Origin: an uncultured beta proteobacterium | GTDB taxonomy: Bacteria; Pseudomonadota; Gammaproteobacteria; Burkholderiales; JAEUMW01 | Direction: 5' to 3' | DNA: 64,000 nt | NCBI GenBank assembly: GCA_963747225.1 | Contig: CAVVES010000010.1 | Coordinates: forward strand, 11,336-75,335 | In this document: positions 4,427-61,571 of the stretch, piece by piece | How the letters are laid out: each line of letters starts with the position of its first letter | Position numbering within the stretch: position 1 is the stretch's first letter | The notes under the pieces: generated by a model | The model's input: only the letters and a program-made list of their open reading frames with translations | The model's database searches: none | What the model was told of the DNA's origin: nothing | Program-made: the position numbers and the translations under genes

Positions 4427-4459
4427 CCGCGGCGCTCGTCTCTGGAGCATTGGAATCAT

Positions 4460-5691: not shown

Positions 5692-6611
5692 CGGTTGCGG
5701 ACGACGCCGTCTGCTTCGCACCGCCCGCATCGCCCGCGCGCTAGCGCACGAAATTCACCGGCATACTGATACGCCTTGCTCTGGGCCCGCGATCGCTGCG
5801 CCGGAGTGAGCATACGATCCAGTTCCAGCAGCATCGACACCGTTCGCCGCCGCGTTTCCACCGCGAGCGCATCGTACTCGGGAGTCCTGCCCTCATCCCA
5901 GGCGAGGAGCCATGCCTCCAGGGCCGGGGCAAGCGTTGGAGCGGTGCGGTTGTCGCGCAGGATCGCGATCAGTTCTCCCTGCCGCCGCTCACGATCAGCC
6001 AGGCGCGGGGCGCCCGTCACCGGAAGAGCGAAGCTCAACGTTCGAATCTGCGCACGCTGTGCGTCCGACAGGGTTCCCACCCATTCCTCCACGTTCGTGA
6101 CCGTCTTTTCGAAGCGCCCCTTCCGTAGCTTATCGGGGGAGACCTCGACGTAATCTTCGGCAAAGCGCTCGTTGTCGCGCTTCAACTCCGCTTCGAAATG
6201 CGCAACCTGCTCTGGGGAAAGCGTGCTCAACACTTCCGCCGCACCCTTCGCGGTTTGTCGCACCAGGGCTTCGTAGTGATTCTCTGCGAGCTCCGCGAAC
6301 CACTCGATATCGGTTTCGGTCAGGCCCGCGCCAATGCGATCTCCCGCGCTCGCGAATGTGACCGCGTACTGCGGCAGTTCCTCGTGCCGATGCCATCGCG
6401 CGGCTGCATCGAAGCGTCCTTGCAGCAACGCCTTCTGGGCACCGTCGAGCTCGAAGAATTCGTCGGCTTTCCAGCGCACGTACAGATCCGCGTTGTTGTA
6501 CGCGATACGCGCGACGCTGCAAGCGGCGAGAAACACGAGGCAGGCGCCGAGAAGCGATACACACATCCGACGCTGACCGGCGCCGAGCCGGTCAAACGGG
6601 AGAACAATCAT
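5568..6611 (-). CDS. DUF6279-like lipoprotein
   Basis: Signal peptide/lipobox (LAAC) followed by RIAYNNADLYVRWKADEFFELDGAQ..., as in DUF6279 proteins from memory. It starts 18 nt downstream of the GGDEF-EAL gene. The last ~120 nt overlap the 3' end of lipoprotein 3 in antisense, so the true stop may be earlier. Confidence 0.55.
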   Translation of the reverse strand: MIVLPFDRLGAGQRRMCVSLLGACLVFLAACSVARIAYNNADLYVRWKADEFFELDGAQKALLQGRFDAAARWHRHEELPQYAVTFASAGDRIGAGLTETDIEWFAELAENHYEALVRQTAKGAAEVLSTLSPEQVAHFEAELKRDNERFAEDYVEVSPDKLRKGRFEKTVTNVEEWVGTLSDAQRAQIRTLSFALPVTGAPRLADRERRQGELIAILRDNRTAPTLAPALEAWLLAWDEGRTPEYDALAVETRRRTVSMLLELDRMLTPAQRSRAQSKAYQYAGEFRALARGRCGRCEADGVVRNRYRAADKLAASSILSCALGEICLISSASAKIWRLSSLNAIA

Positions 6612-6629
6612 GACTACTTTTGACGACGC

Positions 6630-10487: not shown

Positions 10488-11491
10488 TCGGCGAACTCCG
10501 GCACGTCGAAGAGCGGCCTGCCTACCGATCTGTGCATGTCGGTAACCAGCATGATGCCCATCTCCCGCTGCGGGAAGTGGCGCGCGTAGGCGAGGACGTG
10601 ACCATAGATGCGCTTTGCGTCCGGACGCTCGCGCACCTCGCGGACGCGCCGTACCAGCGCCGCCGCGACCCCGTATTGCAGGTCGATGTCGGAAGGCACC
10701 ATGTGCTCCTCGCCGCGGAGGATAGCGTCAATGTCCGGCAGTCGTTCCATGTTGTCGATGAACGCCCTGACCTCCACCCCGGCGGATTTGCCAACGCAGG
10801 CCTGCAGCGCATCGCCGAGCAACGCGGGCGCATCGGAGAACTTCTTCAATGCGAGGTGCGCGAACTCCCACGAGCGCGGGCTCGGAAATGCGACGGGGTT
10901 GTGGGCGGGATCGAAATCGAACAGGAGTTCCGGTCGAAACCGCAGGAAGGCGACGATACGGTGGTCGATGCCGGAGTCGTACGCCCAGGCCACCCAATCA
11001 TCGAGATGGGGCTCGATCTCGTAGTGAGTGAATCGGTTCGCGAGGGGCGCCGGCATTACGTACGTCACGCCGCGGTCACCCTGCCGGTTTCCCGCTGCGA
11101 AAACCGCCCATCCCTCGGGGATGCGATATTCGCCGAGACGCCGATCGAGAATGAGCTGGTAGGCCGCTGCCGATACCGTCGCAGGGGCGGTGTTGACCTC
11201 GTCGAGAAACAGGATGCCGCGTGCGCCATGGCGGCGAGCGTCCGGCAGCATTGCCGGCACCGACCATTCCACCGTGTCCTGATTGCGGAATGGAATGCCG
11301 CGCAGGTCGGTCGGCTCCATCTGCGCCAGTCGGATGTCGATCAGCGGGGCATCGTGCGCTCTCGCGATGTCGGCGATGATGCGCGACTTGCCCACGCCGG
11401 GCGCACCCCAGACCATCACCGGAGCATGGTGTCCCGCGGACGCCGCCAGGAACTCGCGATCCAGAATCGACAGGATATGGGACGGCCGCAT
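10433..11491 (-). CDS. MoxR/AAA_5-family ATPase
   Basis: Walker A GAPGVGKS, Walker B ILFLDEVN, ...FAAGNRQGDRGV...PAPLANRF. Confidence 0.85.
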   Translation of the reverse strand: MRPSHILSILDREFLAASAGHHAPVMVWGAPGVGKSRIIADIARAHDAPLIDIRLAQMEPTDLRGIPFRNQDTVEWSVPAMLPDARRHGARGILFLDEVNTAPATVSAAAYQLILDRRLGEYRIPEGWAVFAAGNRQGDRGVTYVMPAPLANRFTHYEIEPHLDDWVAWAYDSGIDHRIVAFLRFRPELLFDFDPAHNPVAFPSPRSWEFAHLALKKFSDAPALLGDALQACVGKSAGVEVRAFIDNMERLPDIDAILRGEEHMVPSDIDLQYGVAAALVRRVREVRERPDAKRIYGHVLAYARHFPQREMGIMLVTDMHRSVGRPLFDVPEFAEWANSVTSLMLYEVMGGR

Positions 11492-11693
11492 GGGTTGCGC
11501 GAAAGTCTGACTAACAACGAAGCACGGGCGCTCGACTCCCGTGCGCTGAAACCAGGCGGTAAATCGGAGGGCGATGATAGCATGGCGCTATCGAGTACTT
11601 CTCGCGGCCGAAGCTTCGGCGCCGGAGTTTCCGGCCACCCGCCGGTCGCATATAGTAGCGGCCTTGCGCGAGGCACCTACCCTACCCCCGACC

Positions 11694-12284
11694 ATGAAGT
11701 TCTGCAGCAATTGTGGCGGACCCCTTGCGATCCGCATTCCCGACGGAGACAACGCACCGCGCCATGTCTGCGATCGCTGTAATGCCGTCCACTATCTGAA
11801 CCCGAAGTTGATCGTCGGCTGCATCCCGGAATGGGAGGGCAAGGTCTTGCTGTGCCGACGTGCCATCGAGCCGCGTCACGGACTCTGGACCGTGCCAGCC
11901 GGGTTCATGGAGATGAACGAGACGACCACTAACGGGGCGCTGCGCGAAACCCTGGAGGAAGCCAATGCCCGGGTCGAAATCGAACAGCTCTATGCCCTTT
12001 ACAGCCTTCCCCACATCGGCCAGGTTTACATGCTGTTTCGGGCGCGATTGCTGGACCTGAACTTCTCCGCGGGCCAGGAGACGCTGGAGGCGCGTCTCTT
12101 CGGAGAATCCGAGGTTCCCTGGGACGAAATCGCTTTCGTGACCGTGCGCAATACCCTACGTCATTATTTCAGCGATGCGAAGCGTGGGGAGTTCAGCTTT
12201 CACATGGGCACAGTGGAACCCATGTCCCGGAATACTTCCGGCGCAACCTATTCTTCCCGTCAGGAAGACGTGCGCAGCGAGTGA
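11694..12284 (+). CDS. NUDIX hydrolase with N-terminal zinc-ribbon
   Basis: CSNCG...CDRC zinc ribbon. Nudix box GLWTVPAGFMEMNETTTNGALRETLEEA. Confidence 0.85.
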   Translation: MKFCSNCGGPLAIRIPDGDNAPRHVCDRCNAVHYLNPKLIVGCIPEWEGKVLLCRRAIEPRHGLWTVPAGFMEMNETTTNGALRETLEEANARVEIEQLYALYSLPHIGQVYMLFRARLLDLNFSAGQETLEARLFGESEVPWDEIAFVTVRNTLRHYFSDAKRGEFSFHMGTVEPMSRNTSGATYSSRQEDVRSE

Positions 12285-12310
12285 ATCTCGCGCACTGGCT
12301 CAGCGAAAAT

Positions 12311-12338
12311 GAAAAGGGGGCGCATGCGCCCCCTTTTC
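12311..12338. terminator. Bidirectional intrinsic terminator
   Basis: Perfect 28-nt palindrome GAAAAGGGGGCGCA/TGCGCCCCCTTTTC with A/T runs on both sides, between the convergent NUDIX and OmpA-like genes. Confidence 0.7.
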
Positions 12339-12358
12339 AATCAGAACACACGAGTGCG

Positions 12359-13117
12359 TTATCGATGATTGACTTGCGACCCCGCCTGGGCGGTCTTCGG
12401 TGGCTCGCTCTGAACCGTCGAGGCCGCCGTCGTGTCTGAAGTAACTGCGTCACGATAGACCAGAATCTCGACTCGGCGATTCTTGGCGCGTCCTTGGGAG
12501 CTCGTATTCGCCTTGAGAGGCGCGCTCTCACCGTAGGAGACGGGGATCACCTGCACGCCCCCGAGCTCCGTCGCCTTCTGCGTGGAAAGATAACGTGCCA
12601 CAGCGTTTGCGCGCTTCTGACCCAGATCGTAGTTATAGTCCGGGTTCCCCGAGTTGTCGGTGTGGCCAGCCACCACGAAGGTAGTTCCCTCGATACCGGC
12701 GGACTCGTTCTTCATGTCGCTCAGCATCGCGTTGATTTCCTTCTTTGCCTTGGCCGGGAGATCGGCGGAATCGAACTTGAAGGTGGCGCCGTCTTTCATG
12801 TCGATCACCACGCGCCGTTCGACCTTGAGGTTGGAGAGCGCGCTCAGGGCCTTCTCGGTCTTGGTATCCATGGCTCCGATCTTGCCGTCGTAACCGGCGA
12901 GCTTGACCTCAAACCCGGCCATGCGGTTGTTCATGGTGCCGAGTTGGTTCTCCGCCGTGGTGAGGCGGGCTTCGTTCTTCGCAACGCGCTCAGCCAGGGG
13001 ATCGAGCTGCTGATTGGCCCAATCCCGGGTGGCAACGCACCCCTGCGACAAAAGCAAGGCAACTAAACCTCCTGCAGCCAAGACAACCTTCGCACCGCTT
13101 TGGGTATCAATCTTCAT
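12359..13117 (-). CDS. OmpA-family (peptidoglycan-associated) lipoprotein with coiled-coil linker
   Basis: Lipobox LSQGC. C-terminal OmpA_C pattern ...VAGHTDNSGNPDYNYDLGQKRANAVARYL...NRRVEILV. Confidence 0.85.
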   Translation of the reverse strand: MKIDTQSGAKVVLAAGGLVALLLSQGCVATRDWANQQLDPLAERVAKNEARLTTAENQLGTMNNRMAGFEVKLAGYDGKIGAMDTKTEKALSALSNLKVERRVVIDMKDGATFKFDSADLPAKAKKEINAMLSDMKNESAGIEGTTFVVAGHTDNSGNPDYNYDLGQKRANAVARYLSTQKATELGGVQVIPVSYGESAPLKANTSSQGRAKNRRVEILVYRDAVTSDTTAASTVQSEPPKTAQAGSQVNHR

Positions 13118-48783: not shown

Positions 48784-50688
48784 ATGCATCCTATAGACGA
48801 TGACGAGCTTAGCAACCCCTCCGCCCAAGTCGAGAACTACGAGAGCCCCGTCACGCGGCGCGCGATCCTCAAGAGCAGCGTCGCCCTGGCGGTCCTGTCC
48901 GCATTCGGCTGCGCACGACGGTCGACCTTCGAAGCCCCCAGGACGAGCAGCCAGCTTCTCGGCTTCAACGCGGTGTCGGTCTCGACGGAAGACAGCGTGT
49001 ACGTTCCCGCAGGTTACCGCGCGACCGTGCTCTGGCGCTGGGGAGACCCGACCGGCAGCCGGCAAGGGCAACCCGCCTTCCGCGACGATGCGTCGAACAG
49101 TGCGGACGAACAGATGCTCCAGGCGGGCATGCATCACGACGGGATGCACTTCTTTCCGCTGCCCTACGGCTCGAGGAATTCCCGCCGTGGATTGCTGGTG
49201 GTCAACCACGAATACACCGACGACGGGTTGCTGCACACCGACGGCATGAAGAGCTGGACCGCGGAGAAGGTGCGCAAGTCGCAGGCAGCCCACGGCGTGT
49301 CGGTGATCGAGATCGAAAACGCGGATGGCGCGTGGCAAGTGGTCTCGCCATCCGACTACGCACGCCGGATCAGCGCCTTCACGCCCATGTCGATCTCCGG
49401 CCCAGCTGCGGGGCATGAAGCGCTGAAGACCGTCGCAGACCCTTCCGGCCGTGAGGTGCTCGGCACCTTCAACAACTGTGCGAATGGCGTGACGCCGTGG
49501 GGCACCTACCTCGCGTGCGAGGAAAATTTCAACGTGTATTTCGACGGCGGCAAGACTGTCACTTCGGCGATGAGCCGTTACGGCATCGCCAAACGTCAAG
49601 GCATGCGCTGGCAGGAGTTCGATCTCCGCTTCGATTGCGCGCAGGAACCGAACGAGTGCAACCGTTTCGGCTGGGTCGTCGAGATCGACCCGCGGGACCC
49701 CGCGTCGAAGCCCGTGAAGCGGACCGCCCTCGGCCGTTTCAAGCATGAAGGCGCTGCGCTCGCCATCGCACCCGACGGCCGCGTCGTGTACTACCTGGGC
49801 GATGATGAAGCGTTCGAATACCTCTACAAGTTCGTCAGCGCAAAACCGTGGAACCCCGAAGACCGTGCCGCGAATCGCAAGCTGCTCGATGAGGGAACGC
49901 TCTACGTCGCGCAGTTCTCCGACGACGGCAGGGGACTCTGGCTTCCCCTCGTGCATGGAAAGAACGGCCTGACGGCGGAAAACGGATTCGCATCCCAGTC
50001 GGACGTTCTGATTCACGCCCGGTTGGCCGCGGACAAGGTGGGCGCAACGCCCATGGACCGGCCCGAGTGGATCGCGGTGCATCCGAAGAGCCGCGACGTG
50101 TACTGTTCGCTCACCAACAACGCGAAGCGCGGCGAAAGCCACCGGGGCGGCGTCGGCGCAGCCAATCCCCGCGCCGAGAATGTCTTCGGTCACATCATCC
50201 GTTGGCACGAGGCTGCCACCGACCCGGCGGCGATCAGTTTCGAGTGGGACATCTTTCTGCTTGCCGGCGATCCTGCGCACGCCGATCCAGCGAAACGCGG
50301 CAACATCAAGGGCGACGCGTTCGGGAGCCCGGACGGACTGCGGGTGGATGCGCGCGGCGTGCTGTGGATCGAGACCGACGTCACGACGAAGACCTTGCGG
50401 CAGGGCGACTACGCCAACCTCGGCAACAACCAGATGCTCGCCGCCGATCCCGCGACCGGCGAGGTGCGCCGCTTCCTGACAGGACCCAACGGTTGCGAGA
50501 TCACGGGAATCACGCAAACACCGGACGGTACAACCATGTTCGTCAACATCCAGCATCCCGGAGAAGCCGCCAACGAGCGCAGCGATCCGGACAAGCCGAC
50601 CGCCATTTCGAGCTGGCCCGACGGCGGCCGCCCGCGTTCCGCGACGATCGTGATCCAGAAAGTGGACGGTGGCGTGATCGGAAGCTGA
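48784..50688 (+). CDS. phoX: PhoX-family alkaline phosphatase (DUF839), Tat-exported
   Basis: Twin-arginine signal TRRAILKSSVALAVL; ...HDGMHFFP...NHEY...NCANGVTPWGTYLACEEN...FGWVVEIDP...RFKHEG... Confidence 0.85.
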   Translation: MHPIDDDELSNPSAQVENYESPVTRRAILKSSVALAVLSAFGCARRSTFEAPRTSSQLLGFNAVSVSTEDSVYVPAGYRATVLWRWGDPTGSRQGQPAFRDDASNSADEQMLQAGMHHDGMHFFPLPYGSRNSRRGLLVVNHEYTDDGLLHTDGMKSWTAEKVRKSQAAHGVSVIEIENADGAWQVVSPSDYARRISAFTPMSISGPAAGHEALKTVADPSGREVLGTFNNCANGVTPWGTYLACEENFNVYFDGGKTVTSAMSRYGIAKRQGMRWQEFDLRFDCAQEPNECNRFGWVVEIDPRDPASKPVKRTALGRFKHEGAALAIAPDGRVVYYLGDDEAFEYLYKFVSAKPWNPEDRAANRKLLDEGTLYVAQFSDDGRGLWLPLVHGKNGLTAENGFASQSDVLIHARLAADKVGATPMDRPEWIAVHPKSRDVYCSLTNNAKRGESHRGGVGAANPRAENVFGHIIRWHEAATDPAAISFEWDIFLLAGDPAHADPAKRGNIKGDAFGSPDGLRVDARGVLWIETDVTTKTLRQGDYANLGNNQMLAADPATGEVRRFLTGPNGCEITGITQTPDGTTMFVNIQHPGEAANERSDPDKPTAISSWPDGGRPRSATIVIQKVDGGVIGS

Positions 50689-50774: not shown

Positions 50775-51021
50775 TATACTGATCGGTGGGGGAACCACGT
50801 ACGATAGCAGGACGCGCTCGATCGACGCGCGTCCACTGAAGCCACTCCGGGCGCGCGCACAATCGTTGCCCGCCGTCGGCGATTCTGCTTTGCGCCGGCC
50901 TGAAGCCGGCGCGTATCGGCGCTTCTCTTGCGATTCGGCAGATTCCCTCAGGGGTTCACGCGTGAGTGATCGGGCAGTCCCGTCCCGGCTCCCGACGTGA
51001 TATTGGTCGATGGAGGTGATC

Positions 51022-52998
51022 ATGGCGAGCGGTCTGCTGTGGATTCGGTTCGGGTTCGGTCTTCGGAGCACTCGATCGTGCGCATTGAGCGCGGGGCTCG
51101 CAGGCGTTCTTCTGCTCGGTGCCTCTGTGAGCGCGGCCCAGACGGTGCCCACGGGCCCGATGATCCTGATCTCCCGCCTGAGCGGTCAATGCGTCACCAA
51201 TCCAGGGACCACGGCGACGTTGAACGTTCAGATGGTCCAGAAGCCCTGCTCGGGCCCGCTCGCCGAACAATGGACGATGCAGACCGTGACCGGGGGCGGC
51301 TACAAAATCGTGTCGCGGCTCAACAACCTGTGCCTGGCTGTCCAGGCGAATTCCACGGCCGACGGGGCCGCAGTCGTCCAGTACACCTGCAACGGCGCGA
51401 CCGCCCAGACCTGGACCCCGCAGGCGAGTGGCAGCGGGGTGCGGTTCGTCGCGAAGAACAGCGGCAAGTGCCTCAATGTGATGAATGCCTGGCGCGGCAT
51501 CGGGGTCAAAATCACCCAGGCTGCGTGCAACAGTTCGAACCAGCAGAGGTGGGCCATGTCCACCACGTCCCTGCCTTCCCAGTGGAGTGCGAAGATCACC
51601 TTTCCGCTGGTGCCGGTCGCCGTCGCGAACATGCCCGACGGACGTCTCGTGATCTGGTCCGCGTACGACCGGCTCAATTTCACGCCGACCGCGGACTACG
51701 GGAAAACGTACACCTCGATTTACGATCCGCAAACGGGATCGAAGACGGACACGCTGGTGACCAACACCCAGCACGACATGTTCTGTCCGGGCACGACCAT
51801 GCTTCCGGACGGCAGACTACTCGTCAACGGCGGGAGCAGCAGCGCGAAGACGAGCATCTTCGATCCAGGCACGGCTACCTGGTCCGCGTCGGGTGCTATG
51901 AGCATCACGCGCGGCTATCAGGGCAATACCCTGACCTCGAACAGCGAGGTGCTGACCCTCGGCGGTTCCTGGAGCGGCGGGCGCGGCAACAAACACGCCG
52001 AGATCTGGGCGAAGGGGAATTGGCGGCGGCTGCCCGGCGTTCCCGTCGATCAGTTCATCGGGCCCGATCCGAAGGGGATCTACCGCGGTGACAATCATCT
52101 CTGGCTGCTAGCGTGGAGCAACGGATGGGTCTTCCAGGCCGGTCCCTCCGCGCGCATGCACTGGATCGACACCAGCGGCGACGGCAACGTGCTTGATGCC
52201 GGTCCGCGCGGCATGGACGCCTTCTCCATGAACGGCAACGCCGTGATGTACGACACCGGCCTCGTCCTCAAGACGGGAGGCGCACCGGCCTACGATGGCG
52301 GCCTCGCCACGGACAGTGCGTATCGGATCAACATGAACGTCGCGACGCCGCCTGGCGTGGTCACGGTGACCACCCTCGCGCCGATGGTGTTTCCGCGTGC
52401 ACTGCACAACAGCGTGGTGCTTCCAGACGGCCGGGTGATTCTCGTCGGCGGGACGAACGTATCACTGACGTTCTCCGATGCCTATCCGGTCCTGATGGCA
52501 GAGCAGTGGGATCCAGCCACGGGCACGTTTACCCGGCTCTCGGCCATGCAGACACCCCGCACCTATCACGGCGTCGCCATTCTTTTGCCGGACGGCCGCG
52601 TCTTCGTCGGCGGAGGTGGATTGTGCGGACCCTCGTGCACCGTCAATCACACGGACGCGGAGATCTTCACGCCACCTTACCTCCTGAACGCGAATGGAAC
52701 GCTGGCTCCGCGCCCCACGATCATCTCCGCTCCCAGCAGCGCCACGTTCGGCAGTACGATCACCGTCACCACCGACACGGCGGTGACCCGGTTCGCCCTC
52801 GTGCGAATGTCCGCTGTGACGCACTCGGTCAACAACGATCAGCGCCGGATTCCGCTGGCGATCGTCGGCGGCAACGCGGCAGGCTACACGCTCACCATCC
52901 CGGCAGATCGGGGTGTCGTGCTGCCCGGCAATTACATGTTGTTCGCGTTGAACTCCGCCGGCCGACCGAGCTACGCCAAGGTGATCAATATCCGGTAG
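51022..52998 (+). CDS. Galactose oxidase-type copper radical oxidase (AA5_2-like) with N-terminal ricin-B lectin domain
   Basis: Signal peptide. Three QxW repeats (EQW, QTW, QRW), then motif-by-motif collinearity with fungal galactose oxidase: HDMFCPG, RGYQ, GGSWSGG, RTYHGVA, NHTDAEIFTPPYL, DQRRIPL, GNYMLFALNSAGRPS. GGAGG lies 5 nt before the ATG at 51022. Confidence 0.85.
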   Translation: MASGLLWIRFGFGLRSTRSCALSAGLAGVLLLGASVSAAQTVPTGPMILISRLSGQCVTNPGTTATLNVQMVQKPCSGPLAEQWTMQTVTGGGYKIVSRLNNLCLAVQANSTADGAAVVQYTCNGATAQTWTPQASGSGVRFVAKNSGKCLNVMNAWRGIGVKITQAACNSSNQQRWAMSTTSLPSQWSAKITFPLVPVAVANMPDGRLVIWSAYDRLNFTPTADYGKTYTSIYDPQTGSKTDTLVTNTQHDMFCPGTTMLPDGRLLVNGGSSSAKTSIFDPGTATWSASGAMSITRGYQGNTLTSNSEVLTLGGSWSGGRGNKHAEIWAKGNWRRLPGVPVDQFIGPDPKGIYRGDNHLWLLAWSNGWVFQAGPSARMHWIDTSGDGNVLDAGPRGMDAFSMNGNAVMYDTGLVLKTGGAPAYDGGLATDSAYRINMNVATPPGVVTVTTLAPMVFPRALHNSVVLPDGRVILVGGTNVSLTFSDAYPVLMAEQWDPATGTFTRLSAMQTPRTYHGVAILLPDGRVFVGGGGLCGPSCTVNHTDAEIFTPPYLLNANGTLAPRPTIISAPSSATFGSTITVTTDTAVTRFALVRMSAVTHSVNNDQRRIPLAIVGGNAAGYTLTIPADRGVVLPGNYMLFALNSAGRPSYAKVINIR

Positions 52999-53074: not shown

Positions 53075-54016
53075 TTACTTGCGCGCAGCCTTGACCATCT
53101 CGCGCACCAGGTCGTCGGGTGTCCATTCGTTGCCGACGAAGATCTTCCGCAGCCTGCCTTCGGTGTCGATCACCGCCGTGCGCAAATTGTGATCGAGCTC
53201 CGATCCGTTACGACGGACGACGAGCCCGAATCGTCCCGCGAGCCGGTCGACGACGCTCATCTCGGCAGTGGCGAAGGTCCAGCGCTCGGGATCGTGGGGG
53301 TACCGCTCACCGTATCGCTTCAGTTCCGCCGGCGTGTCGAACTCGGGGTCGAAAGAAATCGAAAGCAGGTGCCAGTTTCGGGGAGACTTTCTCGCCGCGA
53401 GCTGTTCGCCGGCCTCCGCGAAGTTGGACGACATGCGCCGGCAGAAGTCGGGCACGGGGCATCGGGTGAAGACAAAGGTCAGAGCGAGCGCATTTCCCTT
53501 GAATTGATCAAGTCTGATGCTCCGGCCGGATTCGTCGGTCAGGACATAGTCCGGCACCCTCTCTCCCACCTTCAGCGGCTTGATGATCGGCGCCGCGTCG
53601 GAAGCCGATCTGTTCAGCGGATCGGTCTTGCCGGTTTTCCTGATCTCGTCGATCCAGTTGTCCTGCTCCGACACGTGGAGCCGGAACGTTACCTCATCTC
53701 CCGGCGCGAGATTGCGCAGCTCTGTTTCGTCCGTAACTTTGAAAGGCATCGTCATGGCCGGCATGAAATCCGGCACCGCTTCGTGCCGGATGACGACGGT
53801 TCGCCCCCCCGCCAGCAACTCCTGTACGACGCCTCTGACGAGAAACTTCTGCGCTTCGACCGCACTCTCGGGCACTTCGGTCGACTGTGCACGCGCGGCG
53901 GTGACACCCACCGGAAACGGTGTGTCCCAGAGGATTGCACTCGCGCAACAAACCGCGAGGAAGAAAAGAAGCTTCCGCCTTTCGTTTCCCGCTGGCGCCT
54001 TATCCTCCGCCGACAT
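53075..54016 (-). CDS. Copper chaperone: CusF-like (MxM) domain fused to SCO1/SenC thioredoxin-fold domain
   Basis: N-terminal TM/signal. ...IRHEAVPDFMPAMTMPFKV...FRLHV (CusF-like). Then ...LTFVFTRCPVPDFC...SISFDPEFDTP...DHNLRT (Sco CxxxC and His). The start overlaps the decarboxylase stop by 17 nt. Confidence 0.8.
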   Translation of the reverse strand: MSAEDKAPAGNERRKLLFFLAVCCASAILWDTPFPVGVTAARAQSTEVPESAVEAQKFLVRGVVQELLAGGRTVVIRHEAVPDFMPAMTMPFKVTDETELRNLAPGDEVTFRLHVSEQDNWIDEIRKTGKTDPLNRSASDAAPIIKPLKVGERVPDYVLTDESGRSIRLDQFKGNALALTFVFTRCPVPDFCRRMSSNFAEAGEQLAARKSPRNWHLLSISFDPEFDTPAELKRYGERYPHDPERWTFATAEMSVVDRLAGRFGLVVRRNGSELDHNLRTAVIDTEGRLRKIFVGNEWTPDDLVREMVKAARK

Positions 54017-55655
54017 GGGAGCGCAGGTGCTCCGCCAGCCGTCGCATGGCGGGCGACGGATCGTCGGGAGAAAGATGCACGTTGATGATGCTCGGGCACT
54101 TCCGCTCCTTGAGTGCATCCGTGATCGCACGCTCGAATTCCTCTTCCGTCGCAGCGTCGAATCCGCGCACGTCACCGATGAGCTCGCCGATCCGGTCGAA
54201 TTGCCAGCTGGCGACGTCGTTGAACGGGCCCTCGAGGATGTAACGCTCGGTGCTGTAGCCGCGGTTGTTGAAAACCACGACCACCGGCGCGAGGCCGAGT
54301 CGCGCATGGGTGGACAGCTCCGTGCCGGTCATCTGGAAGGCACCGTCGCCGACGAGGATCAATGCGCGCCGATCCGGCCGGGCCACCTGGGCGCCGAGGG
54401 CGGCGGGCACCCCGAACCCCATGGTGGTGTAGAACGCCGAGGCGAGAAACTCGGTTCGATCGTGCACGCGCAGCTCGATCGCGGCGAACAGGCAATCGCC
54501 TACGTCGGACACGACGATCATCTCCGGGCTCAGCTTGTCGTTGAGCCGACCAATCAATCGCGCGATGGACATCGGTCTGCCGGGCTCGGGAAATCCCGGC
54601 GCAGTAGCACCGCCGGTATCGCTCGGCAGCGCTTCCTTACGCGCCGTGATCCTGCGCGACAAGCCGACCATGAAGTCCGCGAGCTGCACGTGGCTGTAGC
54701 GGTGATGACGGATGATGATTTCACCCTGGCTTGCGCGCACCATGCGCTGTGGATCGAGGCGCGCGGTGTAGATGCCGGTGTCCACGTCGTTGAGGGTGAC
54801 GCCGAGCATGAGCAGCAGGTCGGACTGCTCCACCAGATAGCGCGCGCTCTCCGAGCTCATCGCGCCTTCGTACACGCCGACATAGGCGGGATGCCGCTCG
54901 CCGATCACGGACTTGCCCGTCAGCGTCGCTGCGATGGGCATGCGGGCGCGCTCGACGAGACGCATCAGCGCATCCTGCAAACCGCGCCGGTGCACTTCGA
55001 CTCCGGCAATCAGCACCGGCGAGGAAGACTGCTCGAGCAGCTCCAGGGTTTCGTCGATCGCCTCGCTGACCGCTTCGTGGTGGCTCGCATCTTCAGGAAC
55101 CGGCTCGATCGCCGGCACCGGGTAACCTTCCGCCATCACCATATCCCGTGGCAGCTCGATGTACACCGGTTTGCGGAAACGCTGGGCGGCAGCGATCGTT
55201 CGATCGATCTGGCGGAACGCGGTGACGGGATCGTCGAGCACGGTCGTTGCGCAGGTGATCCGATCGAAGATCTCGCGCTGGAACGTGAACGGACCGAAGC
55301 GGTGGTGCAGCAGCGGATCTTCCTGCTGCTCACGCACCCCCGGCGCGCCACTGATCACCACGACCGGCGACGACTCCGCATGGGCGCCTGCCACCGCGTT
55401 GACGACGTTCAACGCACCGACGCCGTAGGTAACCGCGAGCGCACCAATGCCCTGACAGCGCGCGTAGCCGTCGGCCGCAAACGCCGCCGTGTCCTCGCGC
55501 GTCGTGCCGATGTGGACGATCCCGCTCTTCGTGATCTCGTCGTAGAACCGGAGAATGTAGTCTCCGGGTACACCGAAGACGTGACGCGCCCCCGCCTCGA
55601 CGAGGCGTTGGAGGAGATACTGCCCGATGCCCGGGTGTCGAGCGCTGTCTGGCAT
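54000..55655 (-). CDS. Thiamine-diphosphate-dependent 2-keto-acid (indolepyruvate/phenylpyruvate-type) decarboxylase
   Basis: 551 aa; IGQYLLQRLVEAGARHVFGVPGDY...TTREDTAAFAADGYAR...VTYGVGALN... and a C-terminal TPP motif ...LVGDGAFQMT...NNRGY... Confidence 0.85.
   Translation of the reverse strand: MPDSARHPGIGQYLLQRLVEAGARHVFGVPGDYILRFYDEITKSGIVHIGTTREDTAAFAADGYARCQGIGALAVTYGVGALNVVNAVAGAHAESSPVVVISGAPGVREQQEDPLLHHRFGPFTFQREIFDRITCATTVLDDPVTAFRQIDRTIAAAQRFRKPVYIELPRDMVMAEGYPVPAIEPVPEDASHHEAVSEAIDETLELLEQSSSPVLIAGVEVHRRGLQDALMRLVERARMPIAATLTGKSVIGERHPAYVGVYEGAMSSESARYLVEQSDLLLMLGVTLNDVDTGIYTARLDPQRMVRASQGEIIIRHHRYSHVQLADFMVGLSRRITARKEALPSDTGGATAPGFPEPGRPMSIARLIGRLNDKLSPEMIVVSDVGDCLFAAIELRVHDRTEFLASAFYTTMGFGVPAALGAQVARPDRRALILVGDGAFQMTGTELSTHARLGLAPVVVVFNNRGYSTERYILEGPFNDVASWQFDRIGELIGDVRGFDAATEEEFERAITDALKERKCPSIINVHLSPDDPSPAMRRLAEHLRSHVGGG
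55254..55655. repeat. Direct repeat copy A (codons 1-134 of the decarboxylase gene); partner at 59493-59894
   Basis: Manual alignment shows the same orientation, no gaps and roughly 25 substitutions in 402 bp. Homology starts at the ATG and ends after ...FQREIFDRIT. Confidence 0.85.
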
Positions 55656-55981: not shown

Positions 55982-58876
55982 TCATTTGCACGTGATGAAG
56001 CACCGATCGGATATGCACTGGTGGTCCTTGGTGCACGCCTTGCCCTTCGCGAGCTTGTCCTTGCACACATTCGTGCCGATACCTCCGACACCTTTGTTGC
56101 AGTACCTGCCCTGCCCGCAATGATCGTCGTCGCTGCACACGCACTTGCCCTTGGTCGCACCTCCGATCGGCGCACTGCACTGACCGGCTCGGCACTCGTC
56201 ATCGAAGCGACATTCACCGCCCATCGCAACCGACGCTTCGGCCGAGCAGAATCCGGTCTTGCAGCGTCCCGCGCTGCACTGGTGATCCTTGGTGCAGAGA
56301 GCGCCGTTGGCGAGCTTCGGCTTGCAGGCATTCTTCCCGATATCGGCGATCCCGACGTCAACGCCCACGTTGCAGTAGCTGCCCGATGTGCAGTCCGAGT
56401 CCTGCATGCACACGCACTTTCCGGCGGTGATGCCATCGAGCGAGCTGCAGCGGCCAGTGCGACACTGCGCATTGACCAGGCATCTGCCGTCGATGCCGAC
56501 AGAGGCAGGTGTGAAGCAAATGCTCGCATCGCACGCGCCGGAACTGCATTGACGTTCGGACAAGCACCGCTGCCCGTCTTCCAGTTTGGCCTTGCACTTG
56601 TTCGGCTCGATCCCGGTCAACCCGGTCGAGCAGTACCAACCGTTTACGCAGTCGCGATCCTCCCGGCACGCGGTCTCGTTGGTGGCATCCGCCACCTTGA
56701 CGCCGTAGGCACGCTCCCACATCTGGATGAACGTTTCGGCGGAGTTGTCGATCCGCGCGACTCCTGGCGTGTTCAGGGCTCTCAGGTCGGCGACGAAATC
56801 CGGCAGGAACCCAACATGAGCGAGGCCGCGCTCGCCATAGCCGCGGCTCACTCCCTGCGGAGGTTCGCCCTGCGGCTCGACGTAGCCTTTGTTGAGCATC
56901 CGGTTGGCGTAACACGCCTCCAGACCGAAGCGTGGACTGGCCTGGTAGGTGTTGCCGTTGAGATCACTTCCGATCGCAACGGAAACACCCCTCTGATCGG
57001 CGTAGTCGACCATCTGAGCGATCGACCGCGACGAACCGGGACAGTTATTGGCGACGGCCGGACGCGGATCACCGGCGCCCGGTTTGCCCTTGCAGTTGAT
57101 GGAGGCCTGATCCGGGCGCGAGCGGTCGGGCGCGTCGCAGATGTGCTCGAAGCCGGTGCGCAGTCCCACCATCCCGCCCAGCGCCCTGTACATCTCGATC
57201 TGCTCGTCGGTGATCACGAATTCCTCCAGGATGTCCTTGTCCTCGGCATCAAGGAGGCGTCTGAATCGGGCGTGAGAGTTGTAGATCGGATAGCCGCGAA
57301 ACTTTTCCATGAGATAGTCGTGGTAATCCTTGAAAGCGCGCTCCGACATATGGGCGGCATCGATCAGCATGCGCCGTGACACCATTGCATCGGTCAGCCG
57401 CGCCCCGTCGGGCCCCATGCCCACGCAGTTCTTCCCGTCGCAGGTGCGGTTGAAAGCGCCGATGCGACCATCGATGATTTCGCCCGCGAGCTTTCCGGGC
57501 CATTTGACGGCTTGCATGATCTCGAAGGCATCGCGATGCGGTGCGGCACCGGCAAAACGACTGTCGGTCTCGTGCACCGGCTGCATCGCCCGAACCCCCA
57601 TTCCGTACAGGTCGTTCAGTTGATTCGTGAAATCTCCTTCCGAGCGCGGAAAGAGATTGCTCGCTTCGAGCGAAACGACGACCGCGAGCTTGCCCTCGTG
57701 GATGATCTTGCGCGCGTGCCACGGGTGCACGGCGATTTCGTACCAGTCGTGCTCGCGGTCGAACTCGACGAAGGCTGCGACCTGCCGCCGGACGTTGTCC
57801 ATGTCCTCGCACGAGCGCTCGGGGTTGCGCTGCGGATAGATGAGACGCAGCAGCCGGCACTGCGGCTCGTTGTTCACGGCCGAGACCACGATCAGGTTCA
57901 GCCCTCCTTCATGCGCCTGCTTGAGCCAGTCGGCATGCACCTGCTGGTGGCCGATGTCGGTAAAATGCGGCCACGAGGTGAAGTCCGGCTGACCGTTGCC
58001 GTGCCGGTAATTGCCGAGGGTCTTGTTCTGGTAGTCAAAGGGAAGCGCGTGCAGACCTTGCGACTCCTTTCCCGTAAAGACGCGAAGCACGTCGTCGCCG
58101 ACGTTCACCTTGCGACAAGCCTGGAGCGCATCCTTCGCTTGGCCTGTGTGGCTGCCCCAATAGGAGAGACCGGCGGTTCCGAGCTCCGCCGCCTGGTGCA
58201 CGTGCAGGTCCGCGAAGCCGGTGGCCGGATAGTCCCACTCGATGGGGTCCGTGTCGGTGCGGATTCTGTACTGGAAGCGGTTGGCAGACTTCGCGTCCAG
58301 CTTCACGACCAGCACATTGCCGGCGGCGTTGGAGACATCGAAGCTCCAGTTTCGCTTGTCGTCTGGGTCGACCTCCACGTCCCTCTGGACGACGGTCCGA
58401 CCGGATTCATCAAAGCCGCAGATGGTGACGTTCGTCTTCCCACCTTCAACGTCGTGGATCTGGATGCGCGTGGTCGAGTAGGCGGGAGCAAGGGTCGTGA
58501 ACCGACGCCCCGATCCGACGATCAATTGCCCCTCCTGCCACTCCGGGCCCAAGCTGCGCGCGCCAATGGTGGCCCAGCGGTTCTGTGCCGTCGCGTTCCA
58601 CCAGCCCACCATGCCCTCGGCGAGACCCGTCTGGATCTTCGTCGCACCGCAGGTGAGAAACTTGAGCGCCACATCGCGCGTCGGCGAGGCGCACCCGACC
58701 GCAAGGGCGGCTTTCTTGTACTGTCCCCAGACGTCGAGCGCGAGATCCGACATGTCGCCACAACCCGAGGCAAGAACGGATGACGTGGAATGCGCAAGCA
58801 GGAAGCCGGCGAACAGCGCGCGGCTGAGATGGATGCACCGCCCGAGCAGCGGTGCCTGGATACGAACGGATTGCAT
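55982..58876 (-). CDS. Secreted M19 (renal/membrane dipeptidase)-like TIM-barrel metallohydrolase with novel N-terminal domain and C-terminal 32-Cys repeat region
   Basis: 964 aa from the ATG at 58876 (GGAGGG SD) with a signal peptide (…LLAHSTSSVLASGC). The core motifs DLHVHQ, VVSLEAS, QPVHETD, LIDAAHMS, YNSHARF and AIGSDLNG are collinear with M19 metal ligands. The last 231 aa (55985-56677) are repeated CxxDxDCxxGxYC…NxCKxKLxxGxxCxxxxQCxSGxC modules. Confidence 0.75.
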   Translation of the reverse strand: MQSVRIQAPLLGRCIHLSRALFAGFLLAHSTSSVLASGCGDMSDLALDVWGQYKKAALAVGCASPTRDVALKFLTCGATKIQTGLAEGMVGWWNATAQNRWATIGARSLGPEWQEGQLIVGSGRRFTTLAPAYSTTRIQIHDVEGGKTNVTICGFDESGRTVVQRDVEVDPDDKRNWSFDVSNAAGNVLVVKLDAKSANRFQYRIRTDTDPIEWDYPATGFADLHVHQAAELGTAGLSYWGSHTGQAKDALQACRKVNVGDDVLRVFTGKESQGLHALPFDYQNKTLGNYRHGNGQPDFTSWPHFTDIGHQQVHADWLKQAHEGGLNLIVVSAVNNEPQCRLLRLIYPQRNPERSCEDMDNVRRQVAAFVEFDREHDWYEIAVHPWHARKIIHEGKLAVVVSLEASNLFPRSEGDFTNQLNDLYGMGVRAMQPVHETDSRFAGAAPHRDAFEIMQAVKWPGKLAGEIIDGRIGAFNRTCDGKNCVGMGPDGARLTDAMVSRRMLIDAAHMSERAFKDYHDYLMEKFRGYPIYNSHARFRRLLDAEDKDILEEFVITDEQIEMYRALGGMVGLRTGFEHICDAPDRSRPDQASINCKGKPGAGDPRPAVANNCPGSSRSIAQMVDYADQRGVSVAIGSDLNGNTYQASPRFGLEACYANRMLNKGYVEPQGEPPQGVSRGYGERGLAHVGFLPDFVADLRALNTPGVARIDNSAETFIQMWERAYGVKVADATNETACREDRDCVNGWYCSTGLTGIEPNKCKAKLEDGQRCLSERQCSSGACDASICFTPASVGIDGRCLVNAQCRTGRCSSLDGITAGKCVCMQDSDCTSGSYCNVGVDVGIADIGKNACKPKLANGALCTKDHQCSAGRCKTGFCSAEASVAMGGECRFDDECRAGQCSAPIGGATKGKCVCSDDDHCGQGRYCNKGVGGIGTNVCKDKLAKGKACTKDHQCISDRCFITCK

Positions 58877-58987
58877 GATGCGGTCCCTCCCATCAGCAGA
58901 TCGACACCATTCGGTTGCGCGATCCGATTTTGTGCCGACGGCGCTTACGGATGAGATACGAATAGGCGCACCGGTGCGGCGTCTGAA

Positions 58988-59347
58988 ATGGCCGCCGGAA
59001 GAACGGCGCGTCCTTGTAACGAGGGCGCGAACGCGGTGGAGTTCCTGCTGCACGCGCTCGCGGGCTGCGTCACGACCACCGCCGTTCTCCACGCGGTGGC
59101 GTGCGGCATCGAGACCCGGTCGCTGTCGACAGAGCTCGTCGGCAACATCGACGGGCAGGGACTGCTCGCCCTCGACGACGCCGTGCCCGTGGGCTATCGG
59201 CAGATCGAGATCAGGACGGCCATCGAGGCGGACTGCAGCGACGAAGAGCTCGACGATCCGCTCCCGTTTGCGCAGACACGCTCGCCGGTGTGCAACACCG
59301 TCTGCAGGCCGGTTCCGGTGGTGATCGAGCGTGTATCCGGGAGCTGA
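58988..59347 (+). pseudogene. OsmC/Ohr-family protein, apparently 5'-truncated relic
   Basis: …ANAVEFLLHALAGCVTTTAVLHA…GYRQIEIRTAIEADCSDEELDD…RSPVCNTV…PV is the C-terminal ~100 aa of OsmC-like proteins. The usual ~40-aa N-terminal strands are missing, and an in-frame stop lies just upstream. Confidence 0.5.
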
Positions 59348-59492
59348 TGCCGGCAGGGTGCGGGGTGCGGGCTGCGGTCGCGAGGTGGCGGCCCGCATCA
59401 GCGCGCAGTGCCGATTGGTGATAAGGCGTGATGAGTGCTCGGCCCGTTTCTCTATCGCGCCGTCCACCCCCATCGACGGGAAGCGCCGCGCT

Positions 59493-59894
59493 GGTGATGC
59501 GATCGAAGATCTCGCGCTGGAACGTGAACGGACCGAAGCGGTGGTGCAGCAGCGGATCTTCCTGCTGCTCACGCACCCCCGGCGCGCCGCTGATCACCAC
59601 GACCGGCGACGACTCCGCATGGGCACCCGCCATCGCATTGACGACGTTCAACGCACCGACGCCGTAGGTAACCGCGAGCGCACCAATGCCCTGACAGGGC
59701 GCGTAGCCGTCGGCCGCGAACGCCGCGGTGTCCTCGCGCGTCGTGCCGATGTGGACGATCCCGCTCTTCGTGATCTCGTCGTAGAACCGGAGAATGTAGT
59801 CTCCGGGTACGCCGAAGACGTGACGCGCCCCCGCCTCGAAGAGGCGTTGCAGCAGATACTGCCCGATGGTTGAGTGATTGGCGGTGTCCGGCAT
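59493..59894 (-). pseudogene. Truncated duplicate (codons 1-134) of the TPP-dependent decarboxylase gene; direct repeat copy B
   Basis: MPDTANHSTIGQYLLQRLFEAGARHVFGVPGDY…FQREIFDRIT, then the frame runs into unrelated sequence to a stop at 59211. There are 7 aa differences from copy A. The upstream region is unrelated to that of copy A. Confidence 0.8.
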
Positions 59895-60181
59895 GGGCCT
59901 TCTTGGCTGATTTTCTTCTCTTGTTGAATCTTGTGCGACAGGGGAGGAGACTGACTCAACCACGAGTATGCGGTGCGACCTGCGCATATCAACGCACCAG
60001 GACGCGGATCATTCTGGCGCGCAATGCGTCCAATCGCCGTTACCACAGTTGTCGCAGAAGCCGAGCGGCCTCAATGCGCCGGAACGATAGTGGCGCAGAA
60101 TTGGCAGCGGGAGACATTGTCGAACGTTACGTAACCCTCTCGAACGCGCGTGATCTGGACCGTTGCTATGAACCTCGCAGC

Positions 60182-60682
60182 TCACGGTACGGCAACTCCA
60201 GCGCCACGGGTTGCCTTGTGCGGCCTAGGGACCCACGCCGTCTCTTCGCCGCGCCGCTTCCACTGCTCGCGAATGAGCTGAAGATTTCGAGTGGTAGTTT
60301 CGGTCTGCCAAGGCTCCCGCGCCTCGGCGAGCACGTGCGAGAGGGTCGTCGTCGCGCCGTGCTGATCCTTCGCCAGCACGTAAAGCTCGAGGAGCGTTGC
60401 GAATTCCCAGTAGTCAGTTTGCGACCCGGCAAGCCGGCGCTTCACGCCATATAGCACAACGGGCAGCTCGGGCTCGAGATAATTCCAAATCTCCTGCCTC
60501 TTTCGGCGTATTTCCCGGTTGTACAGTTCAACCTTCTCGTCGGCCTCAGCCGTGGTAGACACATCCGAAAGCTCATCGAGCTCTTGCTGCAGTTGGAACT
60601 GCTTGGCGAACAGTTCCGGAGTTGCTTCATCGCGTCGTCGATGCTGCCGGGCATATCTCCCAATCCTCGCAGGGGACGTCAA
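60182..60682 (-). pseudogene. Fragment resembling the C-terminal part of DUF4071 / TRAF-binding-domain-like (TPR-like) proteins
   Basis: …LPVVLYGVKRRLAGSQTDYWEFATLLELYVLAKDQHGA…AREPWQTETTTRNLQLIRE matches my memory of the family's C-terminus. The ORF has no ATG (TTG only) and no room for the N-terminal half, and it looks less GC-rich than its surroundings. Confidence 0.4.
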
Positions 60683-60785
60683 CTACGCCACCATGATAAC
60701 GCCTTGTACGCGCGAAGGAGGAATCGCTGCGTGGAGCACGAGGGCGAGAAGCCGAAGAAGCCCTCGCACCTCGCCGGCAAACCCC

Positions 60786-61571
60786 CTATCGCGCCGTCCA
60801 CCCCCCGTCGACGGGCAGAGCCGCGCCGGTGATGGATTTTCCGGCATCGCTGCAAAGTAGTACTGCCAGCGCGCCGAGTTCCTCTGGCTCAACGAAGCGC
60901 TTCTTCGCCTGCGCGGCGAGAATCACGTCGCGTATTACCTGCTCGTGGCTGAGTTCGTGCACCTTCGCCTGGCTCTCGATCTGCCCTTCCACGAGCGGAG
61001 TGCGTACATAGCCGGGGCAGATGGCATTGCAGGTGATGTCGGCGTCGGCAGTCTCCAGCGCCACCGCCTTGGTCAGTCCGAGCAGGCCATGCTTGGCGGC
61101 GACGTAACAGGATTTGAAGGGCGAGGCGACGAGGGCGTGGGCGGACGCGATGTTGATGATGCGTCCCCAGTTGCGCTTCTTCATGCCCGGCAGCACGGCC
61201 TTGATGGCGTAGAACGCCGAGGAGAGATTGAGCGCGATGAGCTTTTCCCACTTGTCGTCAGGGAACTCCTCCACGGGCGCCACATGCTGGATGCCAGCAT
61301 TGTTCACGAGGATGTCGACGCCGCCGAGCTCGCGCTCTGCTACCGCGATCAGCTCGCGCACCTGGTCCGCGCTGCAAAGATCGGCGCTGCAGTAGATGGC
61401 GCGCACGCCGAAGTCACGCTCGAGTCCTTCGCGCAGCGCATGGATGTCCGGATTCGGCGCACGCGAGCCGTTCAGCACGAGATCTGCACCCGCCTGAGCG
61501 AGCGCTTTTGCGATACCGAGTCCGATGCCGCTCGTAGAGCCGGTGACGACTGCACGCTTGCCCTTCAGCAT
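60786..61571 (-). CDS. bdhA: 3-hydroxybutyrate dehydrogenase (SDR)
   Basis: MLKGKRAVVTGSTSGIGLGIAKALA…ILVNNAGIQHVAP…IINIASAHALVASPFKSCYVAAKHG…AICPGYVRTPLVE…DGGWTAR is near-canonical BdhA. Confidence 0.9.
   Translation of the reverse strand: MLKGKRAVVTGSTSGIGLGIAKALAQAGADLVLNGSRAPNPDIHALREGLERDFGVRAIYCSADLCSADQVRELIAVAERELGGVDILVNNAGIQHVAPVEEFPDDKWEKLIALNLSSAFYAIKAVLPGMKKRNWGRIINIASAHALVASPFKSCYVAAKHGLLGLTKAVALETADADITCNAICPGYVRTPLVEGQIESQAKVHELSHEQVIRDVILAAQAKKRFVEPEELGALAVLLCSDAGKSITGAALPVDGGWTAR

Follow-up and report, generated by a model that had tools for sequence, protein, structure and literature searches.

The window analysed here is a 64,000-nucleotide stretch of DNA from an uncultured beta proteobacterium (assembly GCA_963747225.1, contig CAVVES010000010.1, positions 11,336 to 75,335), in which the minus strand of positions 55982-58876 encodes a protein of 964 amino acids. 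A predicted catalytic domain related to the M19 peptidases is preceded by a putative signal peptide and an accessory region and followed by a tail containing 32 cysteines. A first-pass annotation, made by reading the sequence alone, had described this product as a secreted, M19-dipeptidase-like metallohydrolase with an unusual cysteine-rich extension. The gene and the parts of its product are listed below in window positions, with the evidence for each in brackets (pLDDT, predicted local distance difference test of the structural model; dN/dS, ratio of nonsynonymous to synonymous substitution rates; GC3, G+C content at third codon positions).

55982..58876, minus strand: whole gene, 964 codons plus TGA stop (translation, dN/dS, GC3)
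58885..58891, minus strand: Shine-Dalgarno-like GGGAGGG, 8 nt 5' of the ATG (direct sequence reading)
58769..58876, minus strand: putative signal peptide, residues 1-36, with a basic n-region, the hydrophobic stretch ALFAGFLLA and a predicted cut after VLA (orthologue N-termini)
58553..58768, minus strand: predicted helical segment, residues 37-108, with conserved C39/C62/C76 and GxWN..A.N.WATIGPR.LG (low-confidence model, pLDDT 46-66)
58229..58552, minus strand: predicted beta-sandwich, residues 109-216, GOLD/PPC/collagen-binding-like (pLDDT 87-94, eight strands)
56702..58228, minus strand: predicted catalytic (beta/alpha)8 amidohydrolase domain, M19-related, residues 217-725 (Pfam, profile against PDB, hhalign, Foldseek)
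55985..56677, minus strand: 32-cysteine Dickkopf_N-type tail, residues 734-964 (cysteine count, Pfam, AlphaFold2 model, Foldseek)

The gene and its N-terminal region

Translation of the minus strand gives a single unbroken protein. The ATG at 58876 was regarded as the true start because the GGGAGGG motif lies 8 nt upstream and because the orthologue at locus L002, from the nearest genome, has its start at the equivalent ATG and the same length of 964 amino acids. The mechanically defined open reading frame (ORF) extends 5' of this ATG to a GTG at 59572; the extension overlaps the OsmC gene (58988-59347, plus strand) on the opposite strand, and a Pfam scan of it returned no domain. The GC3 of the gene (0.80) falls within the range of neighbouring genes (0.75-0.87). 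Compared with the L002 orthologue, which is 89% identical and conserves all 46 of the 46 cysteines, dN/dS is 0.08 overall, with 0.09 for the N-terminal part, 0.07 for the catalytic domain and 0.09 for the tail. An independent metagenome contig (L001) also carries the gene, with nine nucleotide differences and one amino-acid difference. The gene is thus intact and under purifying selection. A scan for promoters and terminators around the gene gave nothing convincing.

A lipoprotein-like signal sequence had been proposed as a possibility, and this proposal was rejected. The lipobox tested was a conserved [LVI][ASTVI][GAS]C that closes the signal peptide. The orthologues instead present AxA, one or two further residues and a conserved cysteine, which places this cysteine at +2 or +3 after AxA, and some of them have Q or P at -1 (the sequence before the cysteine reads LASGC in the window protein and AFAQC, YAGPC, YAASC or ARAGSC in orthologues). 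This pattern fits signal peptidase I, and the region is probably a Sec-type signal peptide cleaved by that enzyme, with the conserved cysteine likely to be the first disulfide-forming one.

The domain of about 215 residues that had been considered unplaceable can now be placed in part. Residues of about 110-215 are modelled as a beta-sandwich, for which Foldseek returned 5gu5, 7rrm, 3jqw and 5sv5 at E values of 1e-4 to 3e-3. These are GOLD (5GU5, 7RRM) and collagen-binding (ColH; 3JQW, 5SV5) structures that, together with PPC domains, resemble the predicted window domain as sandwiches of about 105 residues on secreted hydrolases, with target-normalised template modelling scores, TM(target), of 0.65-0.77. 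The window sandwich differs from them in lying N-terminal to the catalytic domain, in having no Pfam match and in sharing only 9-16% identity. The preceding helical segment stays without a family, since no Pfam family matched residues 37-217; a prePAAR_I match at residues 60-91 (E 0.04-0.23) fell under the cut-off and was discarded. The entire N-terminal region is absent from some relatives, for example Uabimicrobium (565 amino acids), and was therefore considered an accessory domain, which may act in binding, as a lid or as a pro-region. A word-index search with it found nothing despite the existence of full-length relatives, which reflects the limited sensitivity of that tool.

The M19-related catalytic domain

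The relationship of the central domain to M19 is shown by several comparisons. The Pfam profile Peptidase_M19 (PF01244) matched residues 308-699 at 58.1 bits (cut-off 26), covering profile positions 29-296 of 319. An NCBIfam scan of the whole protein gave no family and a single-sequence PDB search gave no match. A profile was built from an alignment of 70 family members, reaching down to 31% identity and used for all conservation figures below, and its matches in the PDB were confined to M19 proteins (GliJ, Sco3058, DPEP1, PvdM and DPEP3, E about 1e-10). Moreover, hhalign paired the family with human DPEP1 (sequence checked as identical to 1ITQ chain A) at a probability of 98.2% and an E value of 3e-14 over 252 columns. 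The AlphaFold2 model built on the same alignment has a mean pLDDT of 86, rising above 90 in the barrel, and its 20 best Foldseek neighbours in the PDB are all M19 proteins (E 4e-12 to 5e-9, TM(target) 0.54-0.73). Thus, on profile and model evidence, the core is an M19-like TIM barrel, as the first-pass annotation had proposed, and all six M19 motifs that it quoted are present in the translation. The first of these opens the list of predicted active-site features below, and the others lie at residues 399-405 (VVSLEAS), 432-438 (QPVHETD), 504-511 (LIDAAHMS), 531-537 (YNSHARF) and 634-641 (AIGSDLNG).

58193..58210, minus strand: DLHVHQ, the first metal motif (D223, H225, H227), located where predicted strand 221-226 ends (HxH in 70/70; putative counterpart of M19 H20/D22)
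57665..57667, minus strand: E404, predicted equivalent of the bridging Glu125 of human DPEP1, invariant (family alignment, PDB profile, hhalign)
57572..57574, minus strand: H435, predicted equivalent of His152, invariant (family alignment, PDB profile, hhalign)
57350..57352, minus strand: H509, predicted equivalent of zinc ligand His198, invariant (family alignment, PDB profile, hhalign)
57272..57274, minus strand: H535, predicted equivalent of zinc ligand His219, invariant (family alignment, PDB profile, hhalign)
56963..56965, minus strand: D638, predicted equivalent of Asp288, kept in 69/70 (family alignment, hhalign)

In DPEP1, Glu125, His198 and His219 are three of the five zinc ligands and Asp288 is catalytic (PMC9305348). 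The hhalign pairs E404/E125, H435/H152, H509/H198, H535/H219 and D638/D288 (window protein/DPEP1) therefore cover five active-site positions. Twelve residues are invariant among the family members (D223, H225, H227, H276, H310, W378, R389, E404, R429, H435, H509 and H535), and H687, like D638, is nearly so. The first-strand motif is HxH, and not the HxD of M19, in every one of the 70 sequences, so the departure noted earlier from the window protein alone is a property of the whole family. No other conserved motif occurs where the first predicted strand of the barrel ends, and this placement suggests that HxH is equivalent to H20/D22 of M19.

The substrate-binding side of the site also appears to differ. 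Arg230 and Tyr255 of DPEP1 bind the carboxylate of cilastatin or of the substrate (PMC9305348), and the corresponding columns of the family, 546 (D/E, variable) and 578 (variable), are not conserved. A seven-residue insert after the Arg230 column contains E552, present in 68 of the 70 sequences. About 190 additional loop residues relative to M19 are distributed over four insertions (228-307, 446-487, 575-615 and 642-683), which contain further invariant histidines and arginines.

These features bear directly on the possibility that the protein is an ordinary M19 dipeptidase that, in the periplasm or the medium, scavenges free dipeptides such as L-Xaa-D-Xaa, with the HxH motif and the insertions having no effect on specificity. 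The Pfam score over the cut-off, the five retained active-site positions and the name "membrane dipeptidase" given to relatives in databases are in favour of such an enzyme, and R573 (62/70) or R537 could take the place of R230. On the other hand, the variable R230 and Y255 positions, the family-specific E552 insert, the invariant HxH, the extra loop residues of the barrel and the additional invariant H276, H310, R389 and R429 are not what would be expected of it, and accessory modules of a binding type would be unusual on an enzyme for small soluble dipeptides. An ordinary dipeptidase was therefore considered unlikely. Because two defining features of M19, HxD and the Arg230/Tyr255 clamp, are lacking, the window protein was not classed as a dipeptidase and is better described, as judged from sequence, as a member of a divergent, uncharacterised clade related to M19.

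DPEP1 shares the TIM-barrel fold and the five active-site counterparts with the window protein (Foldseek E 6.6e-10), but identity is only about 13%, the window protein has HxH in place of H20-x-D22, and instead of the glycosylphosphatidylinositol anchor of DPEP1 it carries a signal peptide and a beta-sandwich at the N-terminus and a cysteine-rich tail at the other end. The best structural neighbours are Sco3058 (3ID7), Rsp0802 (3FDG/3LY0) and Lmo2462 (3NEH), with E values of 4e-12 to 1.5e-9 and TM(target) of at most 0.73. They are single-domain HxD proteins of 310-400 amino acids, unlike the three-part, presumably exported window protein with its HxH motif. These three enzymes are cytoplasmic and are reported to cleave L-Xaa-D-Xaa dipeptides (Cummings et al. 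2010). The top PDB match of the family profile is GliJ (5LWZ), which serves as a Cys-Gly dipeptidase in the biosynthesis of gliotoxin. The substrate of this M19 enzyme is a conjugate that exceeds a simple dipeptide in size, and an engineered D38H mutant with an HxH motif has been crystallised (5LX4). It is, however, fungal, cytosolic and located inside a biosynthetic cluster, whereas the window gene has no conserved cluster.

PvdM (3B40), a structural neighbour of the model, is a periplasmic bacterial protein of the M19 fold that has an additional lobe (PMC9305348). It raises the possibility of a non-catalytic binding protein that holds a peptide-like ligand uncleaved, in the manner of PvdM or DPEP3. 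Non-hydrolytic homologues do exist within M19, PvdM lacking four of the five zinc ligands (PMC9305348), and both PvdM (3b40) and DPEP3 (6vgo) occur among the Foldseek neighbours. The window protein shows the opposite condition, in that all mapped ligand and catalytic residues are invariant or nearly so across the family. A loss of catalysis was therefore judged very unlikely. PvdM is also membrane-anchored and has no cysteine-rich tail.

The cysteine-rich tail

The last 231 amino acids contain 32 cysteines (13.9%), compared with 14 in the first 733 (1.9%), several of which are conserved among the family members. The count given in the first-pass annotation was exact, and the three regular expressions describing its repeats match where they had been placed. 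The tail is built from three units of eight cysteines, spaced C-x5-C-x5-C-x11-15-C-x9-C-x5-C-x4-C-x3-4-C, and two connectors of four cysteines:

56516-56668, minus strand: first 8-Cys unit, residues 737-787
56414-56482, minus strand: first 4-Cys connector, residues 799-821
56246-56410, minus strand: second 8-Cys unit, residues 823-877
56141-56212, minus strand: second 4-Cys connector, residues 889-912
55988-56137, minus strand: third 8-Cys unit, residues 914-963

The Pfam family Dickkopf_N (PF04706, cut-off 25) was matched at 48.6 bits by the whole protein and at 60.5 bits by the tail alone, in three stretches, the best being residues 823-877 on profile positions 2-50 of 51. The weaker Pfam matches of the tail were to the EB module and other small disulfide families. 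No colipase or prokineticin match was found in Pfam, and a single-sequence PDB search with the tail gave no match. The tail modelled on its own by AlphaFold2 has a pLDDT of 87.7, and the five best Foldseek neighbours of this model, all of them short of significance, comprise the C-terminal domains of DKK1 and DKK2, the colipase-fold toxin MIT1 and DKK4. The N-terminal region of DKK4 (5o57) aligned at an E value of 1.0, with TM(target) 0.47 and a root mean square deviation of 2.3 over 59 columns. "Dickkopf/colipase-like" may thus be accepted as a fair description of the tail, as had been suggested, with common ancestry with animal Dickkopf proteins remaining unproven.

The tail passes the Dickkopf_N profile test, yet the window protein is not a Dickkopf protein, because it has 8-Cys units, lacks the second cysteine-rich domain (CRD2) and is fused to a hydrolase. 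The first cysteine-rich domain (CRD1) of Dickkopf proteins has 10 cysteines. The window tail differs from it in its tandem arrangement of 8-Cys units and 4-Cys connectors, in which a single unit type is repeated three times. The opening motif CxxDxDCxxGxYC resembles the start of DKK CRD1 and is offered as a lead only.

These differences also bear on the suggestion of a eukaryote-directed Dickkopf mimic, recently transferred from an animal, that would disturb Wnt/LRP signalling. Besides the Dickkopf_N match, the presence of a protein of the sponge Sycon ciliatum in one cluster of related multi-repeat proteins would agree with such a mimic. The LRP5/6-binding domain of Dickkopf is, however, the colipase-fold CRD2, and neither this domain nor a Pfam match to it is present. 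In addition, the composition of the gene is native, the module is fused to many kinds of hydrolases, and its named carriers are free-living Myxococcota and Thermoanaerobaculia metagenome-assembled genomes (MAGs). A Dickkopf mimic was considered extremely improbable.

The tail is rare, since an exhaustive phmmer search of 1.84 billion representative proteins returned only 241 matches, 105 of them at E values of 1e-10 or better. Of the retrieved representatives, 143 gave a match when re-scanned locally with phmmer; in these the module was C-terminal in 82, made up most of the protein in 35, and was internal in 22 and N-terminal in four. The partner domains found by Pfam in 72 proteins include M19, Lipase_3, M23, a beta-lactamase fold, PhoD, Trypsin_2, GH18 and papain, as well as EEP, GDSL, reprolysin-like and thioesterase domains, and Dickkopf_N itself was matched at E values of 1e-5 or better in 41 of these 72. 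Where carriers are named, they belong to Polyangiaceae, Myxococcales and Thermoanaerobaculia MAGs, and one bears the NCBI name "Dickkopf N-terminal cysteine-rich domain-containing protein". A word-index search with the tail found seven proteins, of which two or more derive from partial M19 genes that begin inside the C-terminus of the catalytic domain (P0121 and P0127) and two are fusions with HExxH metalloproteases (P0125 and P0126). No further copy of the tail was found within the window.

The sponge protein mentioned above (EukProt) shares a 90%-identity cluster with P0148, a metagenomic protein (ENA) that has multiple Dickkopf_N-type repeats; some relatives of the tail are therefore eukaryotic or sponge-associated.

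The clearest evidence of portability was found in contig JBFTEW010000004.1 (GCA_041806335.1; locus L007), where a GDSL lipase gene (10928-12460) lies immediately downstream of the M19 orthologue P0007. The last 142 amino acids of this orthologue are 94% identical to the last 142 of the lipase, and the corresponding 413 bp are 96% identical with no gaps, whereas the orthologous tails of P0007 and the window protein share only 41% identity. The pair looks like a recent copy or a gene conversion between neighbouring genes, as judged from the sequences. The tail is modular and portable. Within the M19-like family it is also optional, since other members carry F5/8-type C, PKD, HYR or SdrD-B domains, or nothing, in its place.

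Such a pattern is informative as to the role of the tail. It might be an inhibitor or latency module that masks the active site or inhibits foreign proteases, or a purely stabilising, protease-resistant spacer, and not a targeting module. Small disulfide-rich repeats are frequently protease inhibitors, and the weak Pfam side matches (EB module, toxin-like knots), the near-neutral pI and the lack of an obvious lectin motif would be compatible with these roles. A generic localisation or binding function would, however, fit better with the occurrence of one module on unrelated chemistries (lipases, phosphatases, chitinase and peptidases) and with its replacement by binding-type F5/8-C, PKD and HYR modules in other family members. 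The inhibitor or spacer role was accordingly regarded as unlikely.

Proposed function, relatives and genomic setting

Taken together, the data suggest an enzyme acting outside the cytoplasm. The product would be exported by the Sec route and cleaved by signal peptidase I, after which as many as 16 disulfides could form in the tail, with several others elsewhere in the protein. Two divalent metals may be bound through the HxH motif, E404, H509 and H535, and D638 would activate water for hydrolysis of a peptide-type amide bond. The extracytoplasmic location is suggested by the AxA-type signal peptides of orthologues, the conserved cysteines outside the tail and the extracellular modules of relatives. 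The substrate would be a peptide-like amide larger than, or other than, a free dipeptide, because the Arg230/Tyr255 carboxylate clamp is missing and binding-type modules are present; candidates include cell-wall-derived L-D peptides, other extracellular peptides and lactams. The N-terminal beta-sandwich and the tail are presumably non-catalytic, and the tail would most likely tether or target the enzyme to a surface or polymer, serving also as a protease-resistant extension. A probability of roughly 60% was assigned to this general picture of a Sec-exported, disulfide-stabilised, catalytically competent, metal-dependent amidohydrolase with a tethering or targeting tail, in which export route, activity, substrate class and tail binding are predicted.

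Several observations weigh against this picture. The hhalign comparison of residues 212-345 with DPEP1 1-100, which served as a check on the equivalence of HxH and HxD, gave a probability of 0.4% and was uninformative. The possible replacement of R230 by R573 or R537 would leave room for an ordinary dipeptidase. The Foldseek neighbours of the tail are all sub-significant, the best having an E value of 0.23 and none reaching 1e-3. Finally, no conserved neighbourhood, and hence no functional hint, was found when the window was compared with six other contexts of relatives.

A more specific version of the proposal may also be put forward, although it is doubtful. The HxH clade may consist of extracellular amidases, and not dipeptidases, for larger substrates such as peptidoglycan stem peptides, lipopeptides or lactams, used in foraging or antagonism, and the tail may be a shuffled prokaryotic adhesion module that shares ancestry with CRD1 of animal Dickkopf proteins.

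The absence of a described function, as stated in the first-pass annotation, was borne out, in that neither a characterised relative nor a relevant paper was found in the literature on bacterial Dickkopf domains and secreted M19 enzymes. This real architecture has no previous study behind it, and its portable tail makes a good lead; each part comes from a recognisable family, standard profiles recognise both main parts, and no long-standing open problem is touched. If the proposed function holds, M19 would gain a branch of exported proteins that differ in their metal-site chemistry (HxH) and substrate recognition, and the clade-wide annotation as "membrane dipeptidase" would be misleading. It would also mean that a Dickkopf_N-type tail that is rare in bacteria and unstudied is present on at least 12 kinds of secreted hydrolases and could serve as a bacterial comparator for the origin of the animal Dickkopf-type cysteine knots. 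Knowledge of the ligand of the tail would then explain the localisation of a set of extracellular enzymes in soil bacteria (Myxococcota, Thermoanaerobaculia and the betaproteobacterium of the window). Should the shared-ancestry reading be true, Dickkopf/colipase-type knots would have a counterpart, or even their source, in bacteria.

A search of 5.8 billion proteins identified 123 relatives, nearly all from metagenomes or MAGs. The taxa represented include Thermoanaerobaculia, Myxococcota, Sulfidibacter, Agarilytica, Microbulbifer, Haliangium, Ca. Uabimicrobium and Desulfobacteraceae, and where relatives have any database name it is nearly always just "membrane dipeptidase". The full three-part architecture reaches Thermoanaerobaculia at 45% identity. 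The nearest genome is the MAG "uncultured beta proteobacterium MFD04716.bin.2.253", whose DNA is 85-89% identical to the window and which shows the same gene order, decarboxylase-SDR-OsmC-M19. Two apparent paralogues in this MAG were dismissed, since L002 and L004 overlap (92%) and represent a single locus in two versions. At L004 (9972-12955) the gene is split into two frames near 11510 by either a frameshift or a long-read error, and the overlapping L002 copy is intact at 964 amino acids.

The gene had been regarded as horizontally acquired, in part from its location in a mosaic insert. Recent acquisition was not supported, since G+C content and GC3 are native, the related betaproteobacterial MAG shares both the gene and its local order, and only the flanks are rearranged. 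An old transfer is compatible with the patchy distribution across phyla, and is not demonstrated. The DNA of the window and the MAG diverges from 15 bp past the stop codon, and compared with L004 the window has about 1.3 kb extra upstream (59500-60785). Upstream of OsmC, positions 59488-59894 duplicate the first part of the thiamine pyrophosphate (TPP) enzyme gene (5' end, 55249-55655) over 407 bp, in direct orientation and with 94% identity. Abutting this TPP copy are 49 bp that repeat the 3' end of the SDR gene at 90% identity (59452-59499 / 60786-60834). The sequences point to a local duplication or insertion scar adjoining the gene. The extra segment also contains a 166-amino-acid ORF (60182-60682, minus strand) that matches the Pfam family MAP3K TRAFs-binding (TPR-like) at 33 bits and is absent from the related MAG.

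The neighbouring genes in the window encode PhoX, a ricin-B/galactose-oxidase-like protein, a CusF-SCO1 protein, the TPP enzyme, OsmC, SDR and an Orn/Lys/Arg decarboxylase. The second of these, a 662-amino-acid ORF at 51010-52998 (plus strand) just downstream of PhoX (48784-50688), contains ricin-B lectin repeats, Kelch-type repeats and a galactose-oxidase-like E-set domain, and is probably another secreted enzyme. The CusF-SCO1/SenC fusion ORF (53075-54307, minus strand) extends for about 300 bp into the TPP-enzyme gene (54000-55655, minus strand) at the 3' end of the latter, and the true start of the fusion ORF probably lies further downstream. In the L001 contig, the TPP gene is fragmented into several small ORFs. 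In two unrelated contexts, the M19-like gene is preceded, within about 1.2 kb, by a gene for a sigma factor of the extracytoplasmic function type (6502-7113 at L009, the contig of P0003, and 4251-4850 at L012 of Sulfidibacter). In Sulfidibacter, a nonribosomal peptide synthetase-polyketide synthase gene begins about 0.8 kb downstream of the M19-like gene; the proximity of both kinds of genes may be coincidental.

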